The notes beneath the pieces are model-generated. The model was not told the origin of the DNA and did no database searches. It saw only the letters and a list, made by a program, of their open reading frames with translations. A stretch of DNA of 21,868 bases, taken from IMG/VR virus record IMGVR_UViG_2700989545_000008. One strand, written 5' to 3'. Positions 64-16,718 of this stretch are shown here, one piece after another. The number at the start of each line of letters is the position of its first letter. The stretch's first letter is position 1. Both the position numbers and the translations under genes were made by a program. The stretch is from a virus (taxonomy: Duplodnaviria > Heunggongvirae > Uroviricota > Caudoviricetes).

Positions 64-312
64 TTAATCAGCATTCAGGAGCAATGCGTTATCTATGATG
101 ATCTGCTCCCATTCCTCGAATGCCCGGTCGCGGACGCCCTGGGGAACGCTGTTAGTTTTGAAATCGACGACCGTCCGCCATTTTCCGTCCGGACGGTACA
201 TGCGCAGAGCTTTACTTCCCCCTTCCCTGCGCACCTCAACGTTATGCTTGTCAGCAAACTCTTGTAATGCTCGTAGCGTCCCATGCTTTACTGTGTAGTA
301 TCGCTTTTTCAA
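64..312 (-). CDS. lxc: 82-aa small protein at the position of P1 Lxc/Bof (C1 co-repressor)
   Basis: TTG start overlapping the upstream stop (CTTGA) with a GGAGA Shine-Dalgarno 5-6 nt upstream; last gene of the darB operon. Identity rests on synteny and size, not on recognised motifs. Confidence 0.4.
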   Translation of the reverse strand: MKKRYYTVKHGTLRALQEFADKHNVEVRREGGSKALRMYRPDGKWRTVVDFKTNSVPQGVRDRAFEEWEQIIIDNALLLNAD

Positions 313-6700: not shown

Positions 6701-7550
6701 GGATTTTCTCAGCCATCTCTGCCGGATGTTTGCGCATCAGCACCACATCAACGACTGTACTGGTCCCGTTTGCGTCAAAAGTACCGGTAGGCAAGCGGTG
6801 GGCACCAAGAAATTCAGCTTTCCGTGATAGGCGCAGGCGTAACCGCTTCATGTTTGAACCTGAAACAATGGACGGCGGCACAATCACGCACATGAATCCG
6901 CCTGGCTTTATCTTGTCCAGCATGCGGAGCATGAAGTAAGAACCCATGTCCGTTTCTTCTGCGTAAGGCTTATCGATGTTGCGTGTGTTATCACGACCGC
7001 CGAACGGAACGTTACCCACAACATGGTCGAATGAATCGTTAGGCGTGCTTATAGCCAGCTGTTCGAACGGGGAAATCTGTACGCTGTCTTCCGGGTGTAA
7101 CAACTGGTTTATACGACCGGAAACACTGCTGATCTCAGTCGCGGTCATCACCGTACCAACCGGTTTTGTCTCATTAAAAACGCCGGTTCCCGCCGATGGT
7201 TCCAGAGTGTTACCTACGTCCGCGCCGTAGAGCTTCATGATCTCCCAGACACCTTCAGCGATCGGCTTTGGTGTGTAATATTCGGAGACGGACCCGCCAA
7301 TGCCGCCTTCACCGGTGTACCCAGCCAGGATCTGGCGCTGTTCATCTGTCAGTGTCGCGCCGTCCACCAGCGAATTAAGCAAATCTATCGCCTTCTGATT
7401 CGCCTCCCGGCGTAGTCGGTCATAGCTTTTGCCTTCCACCTTTTCCACGCCGTATCTAATCGGCGCTCGGTGAGATGTTATTGCCCTAATGTATTTCAAT
7501 ATTTCGCTGACACTTGAACAGCGAAACACCCCCATAGATAGCTTGTTCAT
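783..7550 (-). CDS. darB: DarB-like giant antirestriction protein (N6-adenine methyltransferase plus SF2 helicase)
   Basis: Uninterrupted 2255-aa ORF. N-terminal methyltransferase-type motifs (EPSAGTGVF; GNVPFGG); helicase Walker A (GFGTGLGKTTTALA) and DEGH box (VIADEGHNYRN). AAGGA Shine-Dalgarno 6 nt before the ATG. Size matches what I recall for P1 DarB. Confidence 0.85.
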   Translation of the reverse strand: MNKLSMGVFRCSSVSEILKYIRAITSHRAPIRYGVEKVEGKSYDRLRREANQKAIDLLNSLVDGATLTDEQRQILAGYTGEGGIGGSVSEYYTPKPIAEGVWEIMKLYGADVGNTLEPSAGTGVFNETKPVGTVMTATEISSVSGRINQLLHPEDSVQISPFEQLAISTPNDSFDHVVGNVPFGGRDNTRNIDKPYAEETDMGSYFMLRMLDKIKPGGFMCVIVPPSIVSGSNMKRLRLRLSRKAEFLGAHRLPTGTFDANGTSTVVDVVLMRKHPAEMAEKIPLVDESTLESANVLWPTFISGKWFEKDGRRFVHGTQEKGFQGRIEVRADGQIDNQALKAKLIHRFESRIDWSLLDMAEPSLTADVVGEGEMRLINGVWQKYAGGRWIEADAGKELKIDAASYGADSWEALQRNLTTTEGRLGMTFTQMANVRDKYTTSISDDMVQLVDWINSQPEKYRERLYRGAMIGRMLIEYQDMKAAGHSAEQIEQQRLSLVSRLQAEIDRFGNPGRGPIAKLSGSGARAWFAFRGAIKLDGTISDELTGKLVTHDSSASYDSTSYQDTLRYLYSDLTRDPIQLDDFRLAFTGELPASDEELLNLLASTPGIAVSPYGGIVPFARATSGDINEIVAPKQEFLATLPDGPVKNNVLNQLAAIEEKRIKTPAENIRFKLNSRWFDRSVILEFLQENGYPDLRYVQSVQLEGDEMVSDTYHGGDGLFVGHRYGVVQRKDKETGEIRYEWDRKSGENATGFPAQLEKYLNGARIGGKDSATANGYREQMALLEDQFNKWIKTHDRYDELVAKYNDVFNSNIPYEHSGDPLGLKGLSGKRQPFDYQNSEVRRLSEDGRGILGFGTGLGKTTTALALEAFNYENGRSTRTAYVVPKSVLENWYYEAKEFLSEEAFSNYLFVGLDVLMDGDQIRQVPVLDENGKPVLGTDGTPVMRDALKLADEATITARMNAIPHSNYRAVVFTKEQYARIPLRDDTVDEHAQDMLYDFVAAGRVASAMDSDSHRKEAARRRVLSEYSDTGTEKAEKYPYFEDMGFDSVIADEGHNYRNSYKNGREASQLAYLPTSAVAQSARDMAIKNAYLMKKNGGRGPVLLTATPVVNTPIDAYNMLSHVLPKEYWQNMGIYGPDDFVKFFGKTRLETVQKISGEVEEKMALVGFENLDALRGIFHRWVTLKTAEDVKDTVEIPELDEHQQDAPLTEEQLAAYEELRQQAEAAAKANNGVTTSVNEDGVIEHEKARPIFSIIRDMDRVCTDMDLYYRRITYRFLPEYADAVQQLADSLPKQATSEDDDSDDSITQQSQYSLIDKGEFIQLQVPEAFEQEVNKRLARFGIDEQTVTHPVTPKYAKLIATLKEFFPEGKQIIFTDEKTQHQKLKRIICNALNLEPSKVGILNAQTVAEAGKTGKKLKAVKPPKELPDEPTDAQIAKYNEQMALYDAYIAQQNEMSLGGLEKIAADFQEGRTPIIICNKKAEVGINLHRGTTDIHHLTLPWTPASIAQRNGRGARVGSNRASVRVHYYCGKGSFDEYRLKTLKRKAGWISDILRSDKSEMENADANDMIEMQMYTAKDDGERLAMMQVQMDKAKAAKRARQKEQATIDLQNYIKAQHAAGEDVEVLTAELERSKAELEKTTAEVAKFKQAVMAKAADNADWKARWGSVHHTDRMLLAQYRASLKSAIQRKANISQAISRYEKLLNRTQKAATDIKRLRPLVEDAINKGILDVDPDLVNHANEFLVIGDRSWRVGQYYDCAGDIVRIKSLDFDSQRADVEIIFTFKGTKSGNWDVKTLDKQVDVTPDEDAVMQKISGGVSIAGINDIISCDDFYRFQQRGMIKITDSYGVQTTESGYSIDFVGTYTDPLKHAVYPDRRDGALKSSIAKWVLGMMSEGNNRQIRSAETFLVELFGSNYGDVIASYGDTLSPEAIQEKIADAIARMPEKTSQGATRNGDSELEVTNAIFGTNEFRASDYEITTAQFGTIGIYSNKAEIKQAMDAASARIAAEREANLNHAVAALTQSWVTAIREAATTGKITPAIADVVNDGSKFMDAYQMDAVKLPSAYGQLSYRMTYNLVSMFSDLAILGLVDLNEVTPELLSMRKNHVEILQRINTVLAGRTDEEKQADADRINLALGNITEEEIAARNEKQEELSSIQGDATSIAQSLGLNYRVSTADLKMMYAPKFAAGEVFGLQEASGMKGVLFRAKDAIKAKFGARWLPAKAKNSDFPGNWWIIETKHNVADVLAVIQQYA

Positions 7551-10391: not shown

Positions 10392-10646
10392 TTATCGCCT
10401 TCGCCTGCGTGCCATATATTTGCGCACCGCGCGGCGTGGACAATCTGAAGCGGTTTCTTTCTGCTGCATCAATCTTGCAGCCATGCTCAAAAATGTCAGG
10501 CACAGCCGAAGCCCGGCATACAATAGCGGTTCCAGTGGCCACGTCTCATTGAGCACATATACCGCCATGAAAATCGAGTCGAAAACTATCGCCGCCAACG
10601 ATAACTTCATTGTCGAAAGTCGGCGGAGCTGCCGGAGTTTATTCAT
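10392..10646 (-). CDS. Small hydrophobic protein coupled to lyz (putative lysis accessory)
   Basis: 84-aa ORF whose ATG overlaps the lyz stop (ATGAATAA). Hydrophobic core (LSLAAIVFDSIFMAVYVL) and an arginine-rich C-terminus. Followed by the terminator. Confidence 0.45.
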   Translation of the reverse strand: MNKLRQLRRLSTMKLSLAAIVFDSIFMAVYVLNETWPLEPLLYAGLRLCLTFLSMAARLMQQKETASDCPRRAVRKYMARRRRR

Positions 10647-11196
10647 TGACCAGTCCCGTCAGGCAAAGCTGGCGTTCTTTTTCACGGCGAATCTTTAAAC
10701 CTCGCAGGGGCACGCCGTTACTGTTCACGAAATCAGGGAGATGGTTACACATATTCACCCATTCCCCTTTCTGCGCCCACTTGTGGATGGACGTTTCTAC
10801 TCGCATGCCTCGCGCTTTGCTGTAGTAGGTCCGTAAGCTATTGCATCCCATATTGAATGCCGCGCTTGTCATTGCACTGAAGGCATTATCGGGCATGTCT
10901 TTGCCCCGGAAGTGCTGATTAATACAGCGTTCAGCGATCAGGATATTCTTTTCCCAATCAGCGGCGATTTGCTGGTCTGTTTTTCGCACACCCGGCGTTA
11001 CCCCGTGTGTATTACCGATCCCGTCAGTCCATACCCCTGCCGGGCACATGTATGGATCACGTCGGCAACCTTCAGCGTTACCAATCAGCTCAAGCCCCGC
11101 CTGGTTGGTTCGCACATTGCCATTACCCATCACGATGGTAATCATCACCGCGATAGCGCAAATTGCACCGCCTCCTGCGGCTGTTTTTCCCTTCAT
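10639..11196 (-). CDS. lyz: SAR endolysin, lysozyme family (P1 Lyz-like)
   Basis: Internal ATG (MKGKTAAGGGAICAIAVMITIVMG...) gives 185 aa with a glycine/alanine-rich N-terminal signal-anchor-release segment and T4-lysozyme-type motifs (GLELIGNAEGCRRDPYMCPAGVWTDGIGNTHG). GAGG precedes this ATG. The track's 33-aa N-terminal extension is probably untranslated. Confidence 0.85.
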   Translation of the reverse strand: MKGKTAAGGGAICAIAVMITIVMGNGNVRTNQAGLELIGNAEGCRRDPYMCPAGVWTDGIGNTHGVTPGVRKTDQQIAADWEKNILIAERCINQHFRGKDMPDNAFSAMTSAAFNMGCNSLRTYYSKARGMRVETSIHKWAQKGEWVNMCNHLPDFVNSNGVPLRGLKIRREKERQLCLTGLVNE

Positions 11197-11328
11197 AAAG
11201 ACCTCATAAGCGAATTTTTTACGCTCCAGGACAAACACCCATTCACAGCCAATACCGACTGACTCGATCCCTTTAGAAGGCACAGGATAATGCAAATCAC
11301 TTGTTAGCTACGTTTCAAAGATATACAT

Positions 11329-11345
11329 TATTGCTCTAATTAATT
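11329..11345 (+). promoter_or_regulatory. C1-repressor operator-like 17-mer upstream of ssb
   Basis: ATTGCTCTAATTAATTT matches the asymmetric P1 C1 operator consensus as I recall it (ATTGCTCTAATAAATTT) at 16 of 17 positions; ends 20 nt before the ssb start codon. Confidence 0.5.
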
Positions 11346-11365
11346 TATTTTATTAGGTAAGATAA

Positions 11366-11854
11366 GTGGCACAACGCGGTGTAAACAAAGTCATCCTGAT
11401 TGGTACCCTGGGGCAAGACCCGGAGATCAGGTATATACCAAATGGCGGCGCGGTCGGAAGACTCAGCATCGCAACGAATGAATCATGGCGGGACAAGCAA
11501 ACGGGCCAACAGAAAGAGCAAACAGAATGGCATAAAGTCGTTTTGTTCGGAAAACTTGCTGAAATTGCGAGTGAGTATTTACGAAAAGGTTCTCAGGTCT
11601 ACATCGAAGGGAAACTTAAAACCCGTAAGTGGACAGATGACGCCGGTGTAGAACGTTACACGACGGAAATTATCGTCAGCCAGGGCGGCACCATGCAAAT
11701 GATCGGCGCTCGCCGTGACGATTCACAGTCCTCAAATGGCTGGGGGCAATCAAACCAACCTCAAAACCACCAGCAATACAGTGGTGGCGGTAAACCTCAG
11801 AGCAACGCCAATAACGAACCTCCAATGGACTTTGACGACGATATTCCGTTTTGA
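11366..11854 (+). CDS. ssb: Single-stranded DNA-binding protein
   Basis: 162 aa, GTG start. N-terminal OB-fold region nearly collinear with E. coli SSB ([20 protein letters not shown]...; [30 protein letters not shown]), glycine/glutamine-rich linker and acidic tail [11 protein letters not shown]. Confidence 0.9.
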
Positions 11855-11950
11855 ATGTGTAAAAAACGACTGAAAGAAAAGCGGTGGTCCAGACGCCGAC
11901 AAAAGCACGAACTCGCAAACAAACGCCAAAGTTGGCAATGGCACGCGCTT

Positions 11951-12031
11951 NNNNNNNNNNNNNNNNNNNNNNNNNNNNNNNNNNNNNNNNNNNNNNNNNN
12001 NNNNNNNNNNNNNNNNNNNNNNNNNNNNNNN
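11951..12031. other. 81-nt run of N (masked or unresolved sequence)
   Basis: Literal n characters. The long 11884-12729 ORF in the track is an artefact of translating through them. Confidence 1.
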
Positions 12032-12051
12032 TTTTAAGCAGAGGAAAGACT

Positions 12052-12729
12052 ATGAATAACATGACAACGAAAGAGCTTTTGACGGCACTTCCAAAATACA
12101 AAAGCCATAAAACAGTTCGCGCCTCAAAAATCAAAGATATCGAAATTATCGCCCTAATGGATGTGGTCCTTTTTTGCAACATCGAAGTCGTTGAGCCAGA
12201 AGGGGTAAAAGTCCATGTTGATAAAATGTTTTTGCAAAAACACCGACCAGAAATTGGCGGATATCTGGTCGCTTATGAGGACGGATCTCTGTCCTATTCA
12301 CCAGAAAAAACATTTGAAGAAGGCTTTAGTCGGACTAACGACTTCTTCGAAAATGGGGTATCGCTCAGTATTGAAGGTCACAATGGGGTGACATTCATTA
12401 CAGCCAGGGACGTAACTATTGCTGCCAGTGGCATCATTACCACACAAGAAGAAATCGACCTTGAAGCAGCCGACTTTTCTGACGCGCTGATGTGGCTGAA
12501 GGATGGCAAGAAAGTTGCTCGACGCGGGTGGAACGGCGAAAACCAATTCTGCTGGCTGGTTCCTGAAGGACAGTACCCGGCACGAATGGAAGCCATTAAG
12601 GGATATTTCCCCGGCGACCTCGTTCCGTATGGTGCTTATTTCGCCTTAAAAAATGCACAAGGTGTAGTTGTTCCGTGGGTTCCTTCTGTAGGCGACTTAC
12701 TGGCATGTGACTGGTTTGTAGTGGAGTGA
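12052..12729 (+). CDS. Two-domain cargo protein: unknown N-terminal domain plus C-terminal DUF2829 (Tad2-like) domain
   Basis: ATG at 12052 with GAGGAAAG 4-11 nt upstream. C-terminal ~85 aa (FSDALMWLKDGKKVARRGWNG...VVVPWVPSVGDLLACDWFVVE) follow the DUF2829 pattern as I remember it. The frame is open back into the N run, so a longer N-terminus cannot be excluded. Confidence 0.7.
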   Translation: MNNMTTKELLTALPKYKSHKTVRASKIKDIEIIALMDVVLFCNIEVVEPEGVKVHVDKMFLQKHRPEIGGYLVAYEDGSLSYSPEKTFEEGFSRTNDFFENGVSLSIEGHNGVTFITARDVTIAASGIITTQEEIDLEAADFSDALMWLKDGKKVARRGWNGENQFCWLVPEGQYPARMEAIKGYFPGDLVPYGAYFALKNAQGVVVPWVPSVGDLLACDWFVVE

Positions 12730-12735
12730 TTTAAC

Positions 12736-13518
12736 GTGGAAAATACTAAAGCAATTCAATACCGCCTGCGTAATGGTCAGAGTGTCGAAGTGACCATCAA
12801 TAATGATGGTGTGCCTGGCGAAAAGGTTTCGATCTCTGATCTGGCTATCGAAAAAACCATCATGTGCCACCTTGGCTTTACTGAAGAAGTGAGCAAAAAG
12901 CATGGTGTAGCAATCTGGAGCGCAATGGATACTGGTATGCGCAGATTCATTACTGCTCGTACCCCAGGGATGACCATGATGGACCTCATGCAGATTGCGC
13001 CGCTGTTTGAATGTGAGCCTTTAGATGTATTCAGCAATCCAGCTATCTGCCAGCAGCTATATGGTGAGATGAAACTCGCGGTTACCCCCATTGTGCTGCA
13101 TGAAGGATCGCTTGCTGGCGTGTGGAAAGTGGAGCGTATTTCAAGCTACATGCCTTTCCATGTCAACGGCGTAATCACTGGTGAAAATCAACCTGTTTCC
13201 GTTATAAAGTCAGACCTCAAGCGCGCAATTCTTGAAGCAAGTTGTCGAGTTGTCGGCCTGGGCAAACAGTCTTATGTTTCCTTCCCGGCTGGCCCTGAAG
13301 GCCCGGCAGAAATTCTGATTATGGATGCCGATCTGCTCTGGCAAATACAGTTTCTGATTGGCAAAAGCATCATCCGCGCTGAAGAACTCGATCAGTACAT
13401 TACCTGCACGATGACGGATGAAGTCAAAAGTGTGGCTATAGCCAATGCCCGGAACCTATGTCGTGCTGCATTAACAGAACTGCAAGAAAACACCACGGAA
13501 GAAGTGGAAAGCGATTAA
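12736..13518 (+). CDS. Hypothetical 260-aa protein coupled to the DUF2829 gene
   Basis: GTG start 7 nt after the upstream stop, GGAG Shine-Dalgarno inside the upstream gene's last codons. No motif recognised. Ends at the strong terminator. Confidence 0.6.
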   Translation: MENTKAIQYRLRNGQSVEVTINNDGVPGEKVSISDLAIEKTIMCHLGFTEEVSKKHGVAIWSAMDTGMRRFITARTPGMTMMDLMQIAPLFECEPLDVFSNPAICQQLYGEMKLAVTPIVLHEGSLAGVWKVERISSYMPFHVNGVITGENQPVSVIKSDLKRAILEASCRVVGLGKQSYVSFPAGPEGPAEILIMDADLLWQIQFLIGKSIIRAEELDQYITCTMTDEVKSVAIANARNLCRAALTELQENTTEEVESD

Positions 13519-13549
13519 AAAAAATCCCGCCGAGTGGCGGGATTTCTTC
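13517..13549. terminator. Strong bidirectional intrinsic terminator
   Basis: A7 tract, perfect 8-bp GC-rich stem ATCCCGCC / GGCGGGAT with loop GAGT, then TTCTTC. Lies between the convergent stops of the 12736-13518 and 13548-13856 ORFs. Confidence 0.8.
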
Positions 13550-13856
13550 AATATACGATCTGGTCTACATGATCACCAAAATCATCGTCGTCGTCCTCAT
13601 CGCCACCATCTACTGCTGGCCAATCAACAAACCAGCCAGCGTAAAGATGCAGCGTTCGGAGAACATCACTTGCGGGAGCATCAAGGGTGTTAACGAATCC
13701 CATATAGCTATTGGGATTTGCCCCAGCTATGGCTTCAGCGATCATGTCCTCGGTAATGTCACCGGAGATAATGCTTAAACGCCCGGAAACTTCTTCATTA
13801 TCATCAAATTCGATAATGGCATCTCCACCTAATGGCGCTGCGATTTTAATCTGCAT
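13548..13856 (-). CDS. Extremely acidic 102-aa protein, translationally coupled to the ddrB-like gene
   Basis: ATG overlaps the end of the upstream ORF by 11 nt. About 23 Asp/Glu against 3 Lys/Arg, including a C-terminal DGGDEDDDDDFGDHVDQ tract. No helix-turn-helix pattern. Confidence 0.6.
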   Translation of the reverse strand: MQIKIAAPLGGDAIIEFDDNEEVSGRLSIISGDITEDMIAEAIAGANPNSYMGFVNTLDAPASDVLRTLHLYAGWFVDWPAVDGGDEDDDDDFGDHVDQIVY

Positions 13857-16718
13857 TATTTAGCTCCTTTGCCACACCTAATAACAGTTCCAGCAATCCG
13901 TCACCATTCATCAGTGATGCGGCAGCGGCCTCTTTGTCATGATACAACTGAAGAGCCATAGAGAATACTTCCGTTGCTGACGTTTTGGAAATAGTCGGTG
14001 ATTTCTGCCGAATTTTCCCGGTGTTACTTACTGAGGCTGGCGGGTATACCTTCGCCATATAAATATTACTCAATCGAGATCTGAAGCACCATTCAGGCTT
14101 GCCACGCCCACCGATATTGACGAAAGATGGCTTATCCCCTTCAACATTGGACTTCAGGAATGACCGGGCTTTCTCTAACAAACCAGGGTTACTGTACTCA
14201 AGATGATGACCCAGCTCGTGCCACAGTGCACTTGCATTTTCATCGTTCAAATTGACAGCAACAACACCATTAAGATTTGCATATGCCCTTCCCTGGTGGT
14301 GAACTACCTTTGATAAGGTCGATATTTTCCCGCCGGTCAGGCGATAAATATCAGCAAGTTCCTTGCGCAGGTCTATCCCACCATTCTGTCCAGCGCGGAC
14401 TTCTTCCACTTCTTCTGTGATAAAAGAGTCGGCCCACTCAAGAGCTTTTTCTTCAGATACGGATGAGTTTGCGATCGCACTGTTCATGGCAGATAACACT
14501 TTCTCGTGGACCGAACCCATACTTCGCTGATTCATTTGCCAGCGTATCTGCGGGTTATATGAGAATCGCTTAAGTAGTTGGTCAAGCTGCTCAAGTTCTT
14601 CTTCACTGACATACTTTTTAGCCTCACCAATAATGCCAGGGAGAATATTGCCGTTAGGATTAAACGCTCGCGAAAGGAAGAGTTTCAGCGCCCCCATGCC
14701 CTCCGATGCTTCAATATCACCAATAACCCGGTTAACAATGGCCGCACTCTTCGGATTAGCATCCGCCAACGCTCTGGCTACGATTTGCAGGGACGATACG
14801 ACCTCACGCTGCATATCAGTCCTGATCTCATCAATAAACTCTGGCGTTATGCCGTGCTCTTTAAGAATATCCCGGCCTTCCGCCGTTACCCCATCGATAT
14901 CACCGACATGTTTATTAACACGACTTTGCAATGCCTTAAATGCCTTCAGAATTCCACGGGCATCATCCGCTTTACTAACGGCCTTCCTGAATGCTGGCAA
15001 GAAGTCTGAGTTAACCTCATTTTGTCGATCGGCCCACTGAATGGAGGCTTCTTTCATCTCGTCCAGAGTCAGATCAACCAACGCGGTATGGTCTGTGAAT
15101 ATGAGCGACAACCTCTGAACCATTTCTGCCAATGGTGATGCCGAATGCGCCGCGCTAAGGAATGCTTTCACCCTGGTTGGGCGAATGGAAAACCAGTCAA
15201 TAGCTGGTGGCATATCTCCGTTTTTTATCGCCTGCGCTATCTCGTCAAAGCCATCGCGCCCAAGGGAGGATGCGTGATTTAACAAGCCGCGAAGTAACGA
15301 ATTGCTGATACCGAATAATCGGCACCATTTTTTCACGTCGGCAACAGGCATTCGAACAAAATGCGCAAGCACTTGTACAAGCTGTTCATCCTGGGGATCT
15401 GTGCGGGAAAGCAGCCTGATCAGATGAATAATGTCTTTGATGCCGGATGCCCGATGTAATAGCAAACTGGTATACGGAGCAACACCGTTGTAACTACCGC
15501 CGGAAACGGACTCGAAAAGNNNNNNNNNNNNNNNNNNNNNNNNNNNNNNNNNNNNNNNNNNNNNNNNNNNNNNNNNNNNNNNNNNNNNNNNNNNNNNNNN
15601 NNNNNNNNNNNNNNNNNNNNNNNNNNNNNNNNNNNNNNNNNNNNNNNNNCCCCCTGAGCAATAACATCGGTAATATGCTGGCCTGACTCCTTCGATTGCC
15701 TTACCAGGTCTACCGCATCTTTCAATGCCGCCAGCGCCTTTTTATCGAGGCTATCCGCTGTCTCAATGCCATCAACAATAGTTGTCACAGCCTGCTTGTG
15801 CGCTTCTCCTGATAAAGCCTGCATCTGGACAAAATCATTGGCTGCCGCATTAAGCGCCGTCAGAACATTACGCATATCCGGATCAGGTTCTTCTGCAACC
15901 ATCCTTACCAGGCGCGCATCCTTATATGCCTTGGCAAAGATCGCGTTTTGTATACGGTCTACAAGTTGCCGTGTTGGTCGCCCATCTTCAGTTACAAGGC
16001 CAGCCGCCTGTGTGGCACCAACTTGCGTCATAAATCCGCGAATAAACGCGTCATTACTGCGGCTAAGCAGATCTCCACTTTCTGACGGGTTAAACAACGC
16101 CATCATCGCCGGTGTTATGCTGTCGGCATCAACAAAAGCCTTTTCACTGGCTGCCATTTCCTGGAGATCAGAAATATTTGAGTCCTTGGCAAACTGAACA
16201 CGGTCAACCTTCGTTAACCGGCGGCGCACCAGTACCGGAGCCGTCATTGATTCAACCTTTTCAGGCCGTATGCCGAATTCGGTCGCATGTTCAATCAGGT
16301 ACTCCCGATACCGATCCGCATTACCGTCCTGATAGGCTTTAATGATCCCCATGGTCCGCCCATTACCTGACTCAACGGCATTGTCCTCACCAATTATTGG
16401 CGCACCATGGCTGGATAAACCGGAATCAGTAAGCTGAGCTGGCCGCAAATCTTTGGATATCTGGTTAACCTGAAGAAGGCTGGATGCGCGGGTCCGGTCG
16501 CGCGGCTGAAGTTCCTGGGGATAGTCAGGATTAATTTTCCCATCCAGAGTATTGGATACCAAAAGAGCTGAGGCATCGACGATATCAAACGCTGTTTTTA
16601 CCTCGTCTCCCTTCGCTGTCACCACATACGAAACCCGCCCATAATCGGGCAGGTTCTTTAGCAGCTCGATCAGCGTTTCTATGCTGGTGGCCATTACCAC
16701 CTGATCGCTTAAGCTCAT
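13846..16718 (-). CDS. ddrB: DdrB-like large darA-operon protein, interrupted by an N run; contains an HExxH motif
   Basis: N-terminal part 15651-16718 (356 codons) and C-terminal part 13846-15519 (open to the N-run edge; track start 15465 is only a TTG). The two parts are in different frames if the N run is exactly 130 nt. LWHELGHHLEYS in the C-terminal part. Together about 950 aa, consistent with the roughly 108-kDa DdrB I recall. Confidence 0.5.
15520..15649. other. 130-nt run of N inside the ddrB-like gene
   Basis: Literal n characters; flanking frames differ by one nucleotide. Confidence 1.

Follow-up and report, generated by a model that had tools for sequence, protein, structure and literature searches.

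The window, i.e. the whole 21,868 nt stretch of DNA that was analysed, is by sequence similarity a segment of a P1-like phage-plasmid. In a megablast search the region 10600-13900 matches Punavirus genomes, with identities of 99.0% to Salmonella phage SJ46 and about 97% to P1, and over its full length the window shares 99.2% identity with p886Rt_IncY, a 93-kb IncY plasmid of E. coli. At least 80% of the window is covered by each of 370 plasmid records. Read from left to right, the minus strand carries lxc, ulx and darB, the plus strand prt and pro, the minus strand lydE, lydD and lyz, the plus strand ssb followed by two cargo genes, and the minus strand hxr, ddrB, ddrA and darA (features under discussion in Table 1). 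Two runs of masked bases (N) interrupt the sequence, at 11951-12031 (81 bases) and 15520-15649 (130 bases), the latter splitting ddrB into the apparent ORFs 13846-15465 and 15420-16718 with no real frameshift signal. Just beyond the left end of the window p886Rt_IncY carries, at 51289-52593 (L072 1289-2593), a SIR2-family gene in place of P1 res-mod, a possible defence-gene swap in variable region 1.

Table 1. Features of the ssb region and related elements in the window (positions are those of the window)
Feature	Position	Strand	Basis
lxc (bof), C1 co-repressor	64-312	-	82/82 identical to P1 Lxc
lyz, endolysin gene divergent from ssb	10639-11196	-	from ATG 11196 identical to P1 Lyz; Pfam Phage_lysozyme
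LPlyz, late Lpa-dependent promoter of lyz	11284-11302	-	P1 annotation mapped by alignment
P2ssb (former Pr21), sigma-70 promoter	11301-11329	+	transferred from AF234172 and AF125376 via gap-free alignment
P2ssb -35 box, TTGTTA	11301-11306		17-nt spacer to -10 box
P2ssb -10 box, TACATT	11324-11329
C1 operator Op21/Ossb, monovalent asymmetric 17-mer ATTGCTCTAATTAATTT	11330-11346	+	consensus match, P1 identity and annotation
Operator core, TTGCTCTA	operator positions 2-9
P1ssb, predicted second sigma-70 promoter	11336-11363	+	P1 annotation mapped by alignment; prediction only
P1ssb predicted -35 box, within operator	11335-11340
Plyz, predicted leftward sigma-70 promoter	11359-11385	-	P1 annotation mapped by alignment; prediction only
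ssb, GTG start, 162 codons	11366-11854	+	100% identical to P1 Ssb; Pfam SSB, E 7e-40
Conserved non-coding leader, ssb to cargo, 197 nt	11855-12051	+	alignment; frame broken in relatives; 11951-12031 masked N
Cargo gene 1, 225 aa, C-terminal Tad2-like (DUF2829) domain	12052-12729	+	PF11195, PDB matches, RefSeq name
Cargo gene 2, IsaA homologue, 260 aa	12736-13518	+	95% identical to P1 IsaA residues 60-320; phrog_2326 (unknown function)
Hairpin terminator between convergent stops of isaA-like gene and hxr	13517-13549	bidirectional	stem 13522-13531 / 13536-13545, folding

Several gene models beside the ssb start are over-long: SJ46 lys (L003 3040-3684, 214 aa) and the window ORF 10639-11295 (218 aa, TTG start) both run upstream through the late promoter LPlyz, while the documented lyz start is that of P1, an ATG at 11196 giving 185 aa.

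A preliminary description of this DNA had placed a near-consensus C1 operator at 11329-11345, with 16 of 17 positions matched and its end 20 nt before ssb. The site itself is borne out, although its true start is one base to the right, so that the 17-mer ATTGCTCTAATTAATTT occupies 11330-11346 (+). It differs from the asymmetric 17 bp C1 operator consensus ATTGCTCTAATAAATTT, of which P1 has 22 operators (PMC8546580), solely at position 12, where T replaces A, and it ends at 11346, with 19 intervening bases before the GTG at 11366; match and distance are thus as first described. The conserved left half of C1 operators, TTGCTCTAAT, is present, and T at position 12 is found also in other operator-like sites of the regulon. 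Such a match is not expected by chance: none with at most one mismatch occurred in 100 dinucleotide-preserving shuffles of the window, and matches with up to three mismatches averaged 0.11 per shuffled window. We further scored the window with a weight matrix derived from 14 operator-like sites of the closest complete plasmid, p886Rt_IncY, leaving out the ssb site. The Op21-type site scores 26.0 bits, the 14 matrix sites 20.9-28.5 bits, and the second-best 17-mer of the window 14.5 bits.

A second candidate operator, ATTGCCCTAATGTATTT at 7480-7496 (+) inside the 5' end of darB, was rejected, having three mismatches, a score of 14.5 bits and C for T at position 6 of the core. This 17-mer is kept in P1 (17166) and in p886Rt_IncY and carries no operator annotation in P1; it is probably non-functional.

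Comparison with the experimentally known P1 operators, which the preliminary description had called for, identifies the site directly. Alignment of 11270-11380 to two independent P1 GenBank records is gap-free with 110 of 111 bases identical, and the 17-mer is identical to P1 Op21/Ossb; the sole difference, at 11280, lies outside the site and outside any annotated element. In AF125376 the corresponding 17 bases are labelled 'operator 21 (Op21); binding site for the major P1 repressor protein C1', and are preceded by the 'promoter of ssb-P1' and followed by the ssb-P1 ribosome-binding site. AF234172 labels them 'monovalent C1-controlled operator Ossb; corresponds to former Op21', states identity to the Op21 deposit M25412, and places the sigma-70 promoter P2ssb (former Pr21) immediately upstream. 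The overlap with a promoter that characterises C1 operators is seen here too, as the first operator base, 11330, is the base after the P2ssb -10 box, and the site holds the -35 box of the predicted P1ssb. P2ssb was missed by a generic promoter scan because it matches the consensus at only 8 of 12 positions, and such a scan is uninformative for weak P1 promoters. Op21 was reportedly defined by Citron, Velleman and Schuster (J Biol Chem 1989), and an ssb-P1::lacZ fusion is said to have been found repressed in lysogens by Lehnherr et al. (J Bacteriol 1999).

To assess variation of the operator among relatives, we searched with anchored flanks and an unconstrained 17-base stretch between them, and obtained 64 viral contigs. 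The allele of the window is present in 52 of these, the others being ATTGCTCTAATCATTTT (n=6), GTTGCTCTAATTATTTT (n=3), ATTGCTCTAATTGATTT (n=2) and ATTGCTCTAGTTGATTT (n=1), and alleles with two to three mismatches to the consensus occur in relatives. Operator positions 2-9 (TTGCTCTA), 11 and 15-17 are invariant across the 64 contigs, as is the P2ssb -35 box. Positions 1, 12, 13 and 14 vary in the contigs and also among the other operator-like sites of the regulon; position 10 is changed in one contig and is constant among 15 operator-like sites of the regulon. As all relatives holding the ssb-lyz intergenic region are at least 95% identical, this conservation is by itself weak evidence.

The regulatory partners of the operator are found in the lineage. 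The co-repressor gene lxc lies within the window; its product is characterised in the P1 record as 'modulator of C1 action; enhances binding of C1 to all its operators'. The c1 gene is outside the window; p886Rt_IncY encodes a 283-residue 'phage repressor protein C1' with one difference, at residue 193, from P1 C1.100, and from the near-identical complete plasmids we infer that C1 would be present in the element of the window. The same plasmid has 16 sites within three mismatches of the C1 consensus, lying near ant, kilA, ssb, ref, c1, lpa, dnaB (ban) and the dam-methylase gene (dmt), i.e. where, judged by neighbouring annotation, P1 operators are expected. In the rt-qPCR analysis of Ronayne et al. 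following heat induction of P1Cm c1.100, ssb, dmt and kilA are among the C1-controlled genes, and their induction is stronger and slightly earlier than that of ref (PMC4713147). This result should transfer directly to the window because promoter, operator and coding sequence are identical. The earlier expectation of ssb being shut off in the prophage and turned on upon induction is supported by the P1-identical Op21 at P2ssb and by the rise of the P1 ssb transcript after thermal inactivation of C1 (PMC4713147). In P1vir, CRISPRi knockdown of ssb, isaA or isaB left plaque formation unaffected, and these genes were scored non-essential (PMC10695390).

Downstream of ssb the preliminary description had envisaged a DUF2829 gene pair, which is true of the first gene only: this contains PF11195, whereas the second is an IsaA homologue with no Pfam match. 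The first cargo gene starts at ATG 12052 behind the ribosome-binding site AGAGGAAAG, in agreement with the 678-nt RefSeq 'DUF2829 domain-containing protein'. The PF11195 domain covers residues 141-224 of its product (E 1.6e-22; score 80.3 bits, cut-off 25), and the last 89 residues align end-to-end with the 88-89-residue Tad2 chains ModTad2 9EIB (E 6e-20) and Tad2 8V3E (E 8e-20). The N-terminal 136 residues match no named family. AcrIIA7 anti-CRISPR proteins match the same domain, which therefore does not point to a particular target of the protein, and in the literature searched we found no experiments on P1-type Tad2-like homologues. The second cargo gene matches no Pfam family even with the E threshold relaxed to 1, and BLASTP detects no similarity between it and the first.

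The 197 nt between ssb and the first cargo gene form a conserved leader. A 281-aa ORF, 11884-12729, was rejected as a gene, as it crosses the 81 masked bases and its frame is broken in relatives, by stop codons in three loci (L018, L043 and L052) and by being out of frame with the next gene in another three (L021, L030 and L046); 11855-12051 is therefore assigned as non-coding. For the same reason, i.e. stops in the frame or a shifted frame in close relatives, the deposited models of P1 IsaA (320 aa, GTG start; L002 2784-2955) and of the SJ46 Tad2-like protein J46_0048 (281 aa; L003 4285-4452) appear over-extended, by about 56 codons, and the conserved ribosome-binding site and ATG at 12052 are likely to mark the true start. 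In P1 the same leader and the same RBS-ATG junction are followed directly by isaA, then by IS1 and isaB, and P1 lacks the Tad2-like gene exactly at this junction. The isaA-IS1-isaB segment has been described as one of the variable regions in P1-like phage-plasmids (PMC9603915; PMC6906374). Of the 64 contigs, 21 contain the Tad2-like gene, 18 have isaA directly behind the leader and 16 hold other cargo, the remaining nine being too short to tell; diverged Tad2-like alleles of 64-65% and 84% identity occupy the same slot in loci L043, L068 and L052.

Whether the cargo genes share the ssb transcript was approached through the distribution of terminators. No plus-strand terminator-like site was found from ssb to 13518 in either the window or SJ46, a scan of ours was likewise negative for the stretch from ssb to the cargo in all 41 loci with this leader, and 6 nt separate the two cargo genes. 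In window-type loci the first terminator-like site after ssb is the hairpin at 13517-13549, which has a 10-bp GC-rich stem, sits between the convergent stop codons at 13518 and 13548, and folds with -17.1 kcal/mol on the plus and -22.6 kcal/mol on the minus strand (z -4.8), the U-run being on the minus strand. It was detected by folding and our own scan and missed by a generic terminator scan, probably owing to a G-T stem extension that consumes the T-run. Given the absence of terminators and the short gaps, the arrangement favours a single transcript that covers ssb, the Tad2-like gene and the isaA homologue and ends at this hairpin. The literature searched yielded no transcript data on isaA or on the Tad2-like gene, the P1 transcriptome papers reporting ssb, not isaA.

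A different organisation is evident in relatives with unrelated cargo, where in at least 8 of 19 loci the ssb stop codon is followed, at a distance of about 40 nt, by a canonical terminator; in these ssb looks monocistronic. The canonical terminator, CCCCTGTTAATACAGGGG plus a T-run, occurs in L022, L044, L050, L064, L066, L067, L015 and L020 at an offset of about 566-583 from the operator. An Rfam search of the ssb-to-hxr region of SJ46 gave nothing credible, with matches far below gathering scores, and a structured RNA in the leader was also rejected, the fold z being only -2.1 and the variants in relatives not compensatory.

We consider it very probable that the site is the Op21/Ossb operator of a P1-type phage-plasmid, at which C1 silences ssb in the prophage, and that the transcript most probably continues into both cargo genes. 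In support of this, the present analysis shows that operator and promoter are identical to those annotated in P1, that the lineage has both C1 and Lxc, and that terminators are lacking, while C1 binding and ssb induction come from published P1 work; C1 would bind at 11330-11346 as is annotated for the identical P1 sequence. The exact transcription start, the mode of occlusion and read-through into the cargo are what we infer from this layout. C1, stabilised by Lxc, would bind the asymmetric 17-bp operator and so cover the start region of P2ssb together with the predicted P1ssb -35 box, blocking initiation by RNA polymerase and leaving ssb silent in the plasmid prophage. Upon inactivation of C1, by Coi or Ant or by heat in the case of ts alleles, ssb would be switched on as an early gene, as it would also be right after infection, before C1 accumulates. 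The transcript would then most probably cross the 197-nt leader, take in both cargo genes and stop at the 13517-13549 hairpin. Operator-bound C1 may in addition stop leftward transcription from the predicted Plyz.

The properties of the leader allow another view of the cargo, namely that the operator controls ssb only and that the genes beyond it are expressed from a leader promoter of their own, or are largely insulated by attenuation, in which case C1 would not determine when they are expressed. For a gap within an operon the leader is long, and it is conserved although non-coding. In relatives the part of it that is masked in the window contains, from the alignment, a sigma-70-like match, TTTTCA-N17-GATATT, which at 8 of 12 positions is no worse than P2ssb, as well as a moderately stable hairpin (z -2.1) with UUUU 6 nt later. 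However, the heavily annotated P1 record shows no promoter in the leader, no match of at least 9 of 12 positions was found there, none of the 41 loci has a canonical terminator in it, and the hairpin variants of relatives lack compensatory changes. Relatives whose cargo is not co-expressed instead have an explicit terminator right after ssb, which is absent from the lineage of the window, and independent control of the cargo is in our view unlikely, if not negligibly so. We regard as slightly less likely again the proposal that the operator also, or mainly, blocks the leftward Plyz inside the ssb start and thereby curbs leaky production of lysozyme in the prophage. The P1 record does predict Plyz, with a -10 box at the matching 11359-11364 (-), and its transcript would meet C1 at 11330-11346 within the first 25 nt. 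Yet Plyz is a prediction only, lyz is documented to be expressed from a late promoter of its own, LPlyz, which lies downstream of the operator, and blocking of Plyz would add to the control of ssb and not replace it.

That the 17-mer is a chance match or the relic of a decayed operator might be suggested by the AT-rich region, by the one mismatch to the consensus and by the alleles of relatives with two or three. It is contradicted by the shuffles, 0 of 100 giving a match, and by identity to P1 Op21, which was annotated from earlier experimental work. Moreover, T at position 12 recurs in operator-like sites elsewhere in the regulon, none of the 64 contigs departs from the core, and P1 ssb is induced on C1 inactivation. 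We give this explanation practically no credence, and within the limits of sequence and published P1 data it is already refuted. Silencing of ssb by C1 at Op21/Ossb, with transcription most probably continuing into the cargo, remains our preferred reading.

The operator finding is correct and already known, being textbook P1 biology that has been annotated and cited for decades. Only one point goes beyond the literature searched, namely that in this lineage the C1-controlled ssb is followed by a gene whose product has a Tad2-like domain. We tentatively suggest, at somewhat less than even confidence, that the ssb promoter-operator and leader may constitute a fixed expression platform for an exchangeable cargo slot in P1-type phage-plasmids, which would here hold a two-domain Tad2-like immune-signal sponge, immediate-early in expression and silent in the prophage. 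P1 lacks the gene at the same RBS-ATG junction, and other lineages carry either 64-84% identical alleles or unrelated cargo closed off by a terminator. Should the Tad2-like gene be transcribed together with ssb, this phage-plasmid family, which is common in clinical E. coli, would have in it a counter-defence gene of immediate-early, repressor-set timing. As an operator the site is of little importance, confirming the window as a standard P1-type phage-plasmid. It is of value for annotation, as P1-like plasmids in the databases are without operator and promoter features, and several records over-extend the genes beside the site.

The closest relatives, SJ46 and IncY plasmids such as p886Rt_IncY, are 99% identical to the window and have the same order of ssb, Tad2-like gene and isaA; unlike the P1 records, theirs carry no operator or promoter annotation, and SJ46 has over-long lys and Tad2-like gene models. 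The C-terminal domain of the first cargo protein resembles in sequence the Tad2 anti-Thoeris sponges (ModTad2 9EIB, Tad2 8V3E and SPO1 Gp34.65 8SME), and the cargo protein differs from these in its extra N-terminal domain of 136 residues. In P1 itself ssb is followed by isaA, IS1 and isaB, whereas in the window the Tad2-like gene and then isaA follow, without IS1 and without isaB. The other P1 C1 operators, for example those before ban, dmt, kilA-repL, lpa, ref/cre and c1/coi, share the asymmetric ATTGCTCTAATAAATTT consensus with its conserved left half and, like Op21, overlap or adjoin sigma-70 promoters of early genes. Op21 is distinct in being a single, monovalent site, in contrast to the bivalent overlapping pair at c1 (Oc1ab), and in having T, not A, at position 12. 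With P1 Op21/Ossb and its promoter Pr21/P2ssb the window has in common the same 17-mer, the -35 and -10 boxes and their spacing, the ribosome-binding site, the GTG start and the Ssb protein, and in both the divergent lyz is served by a late promoter.
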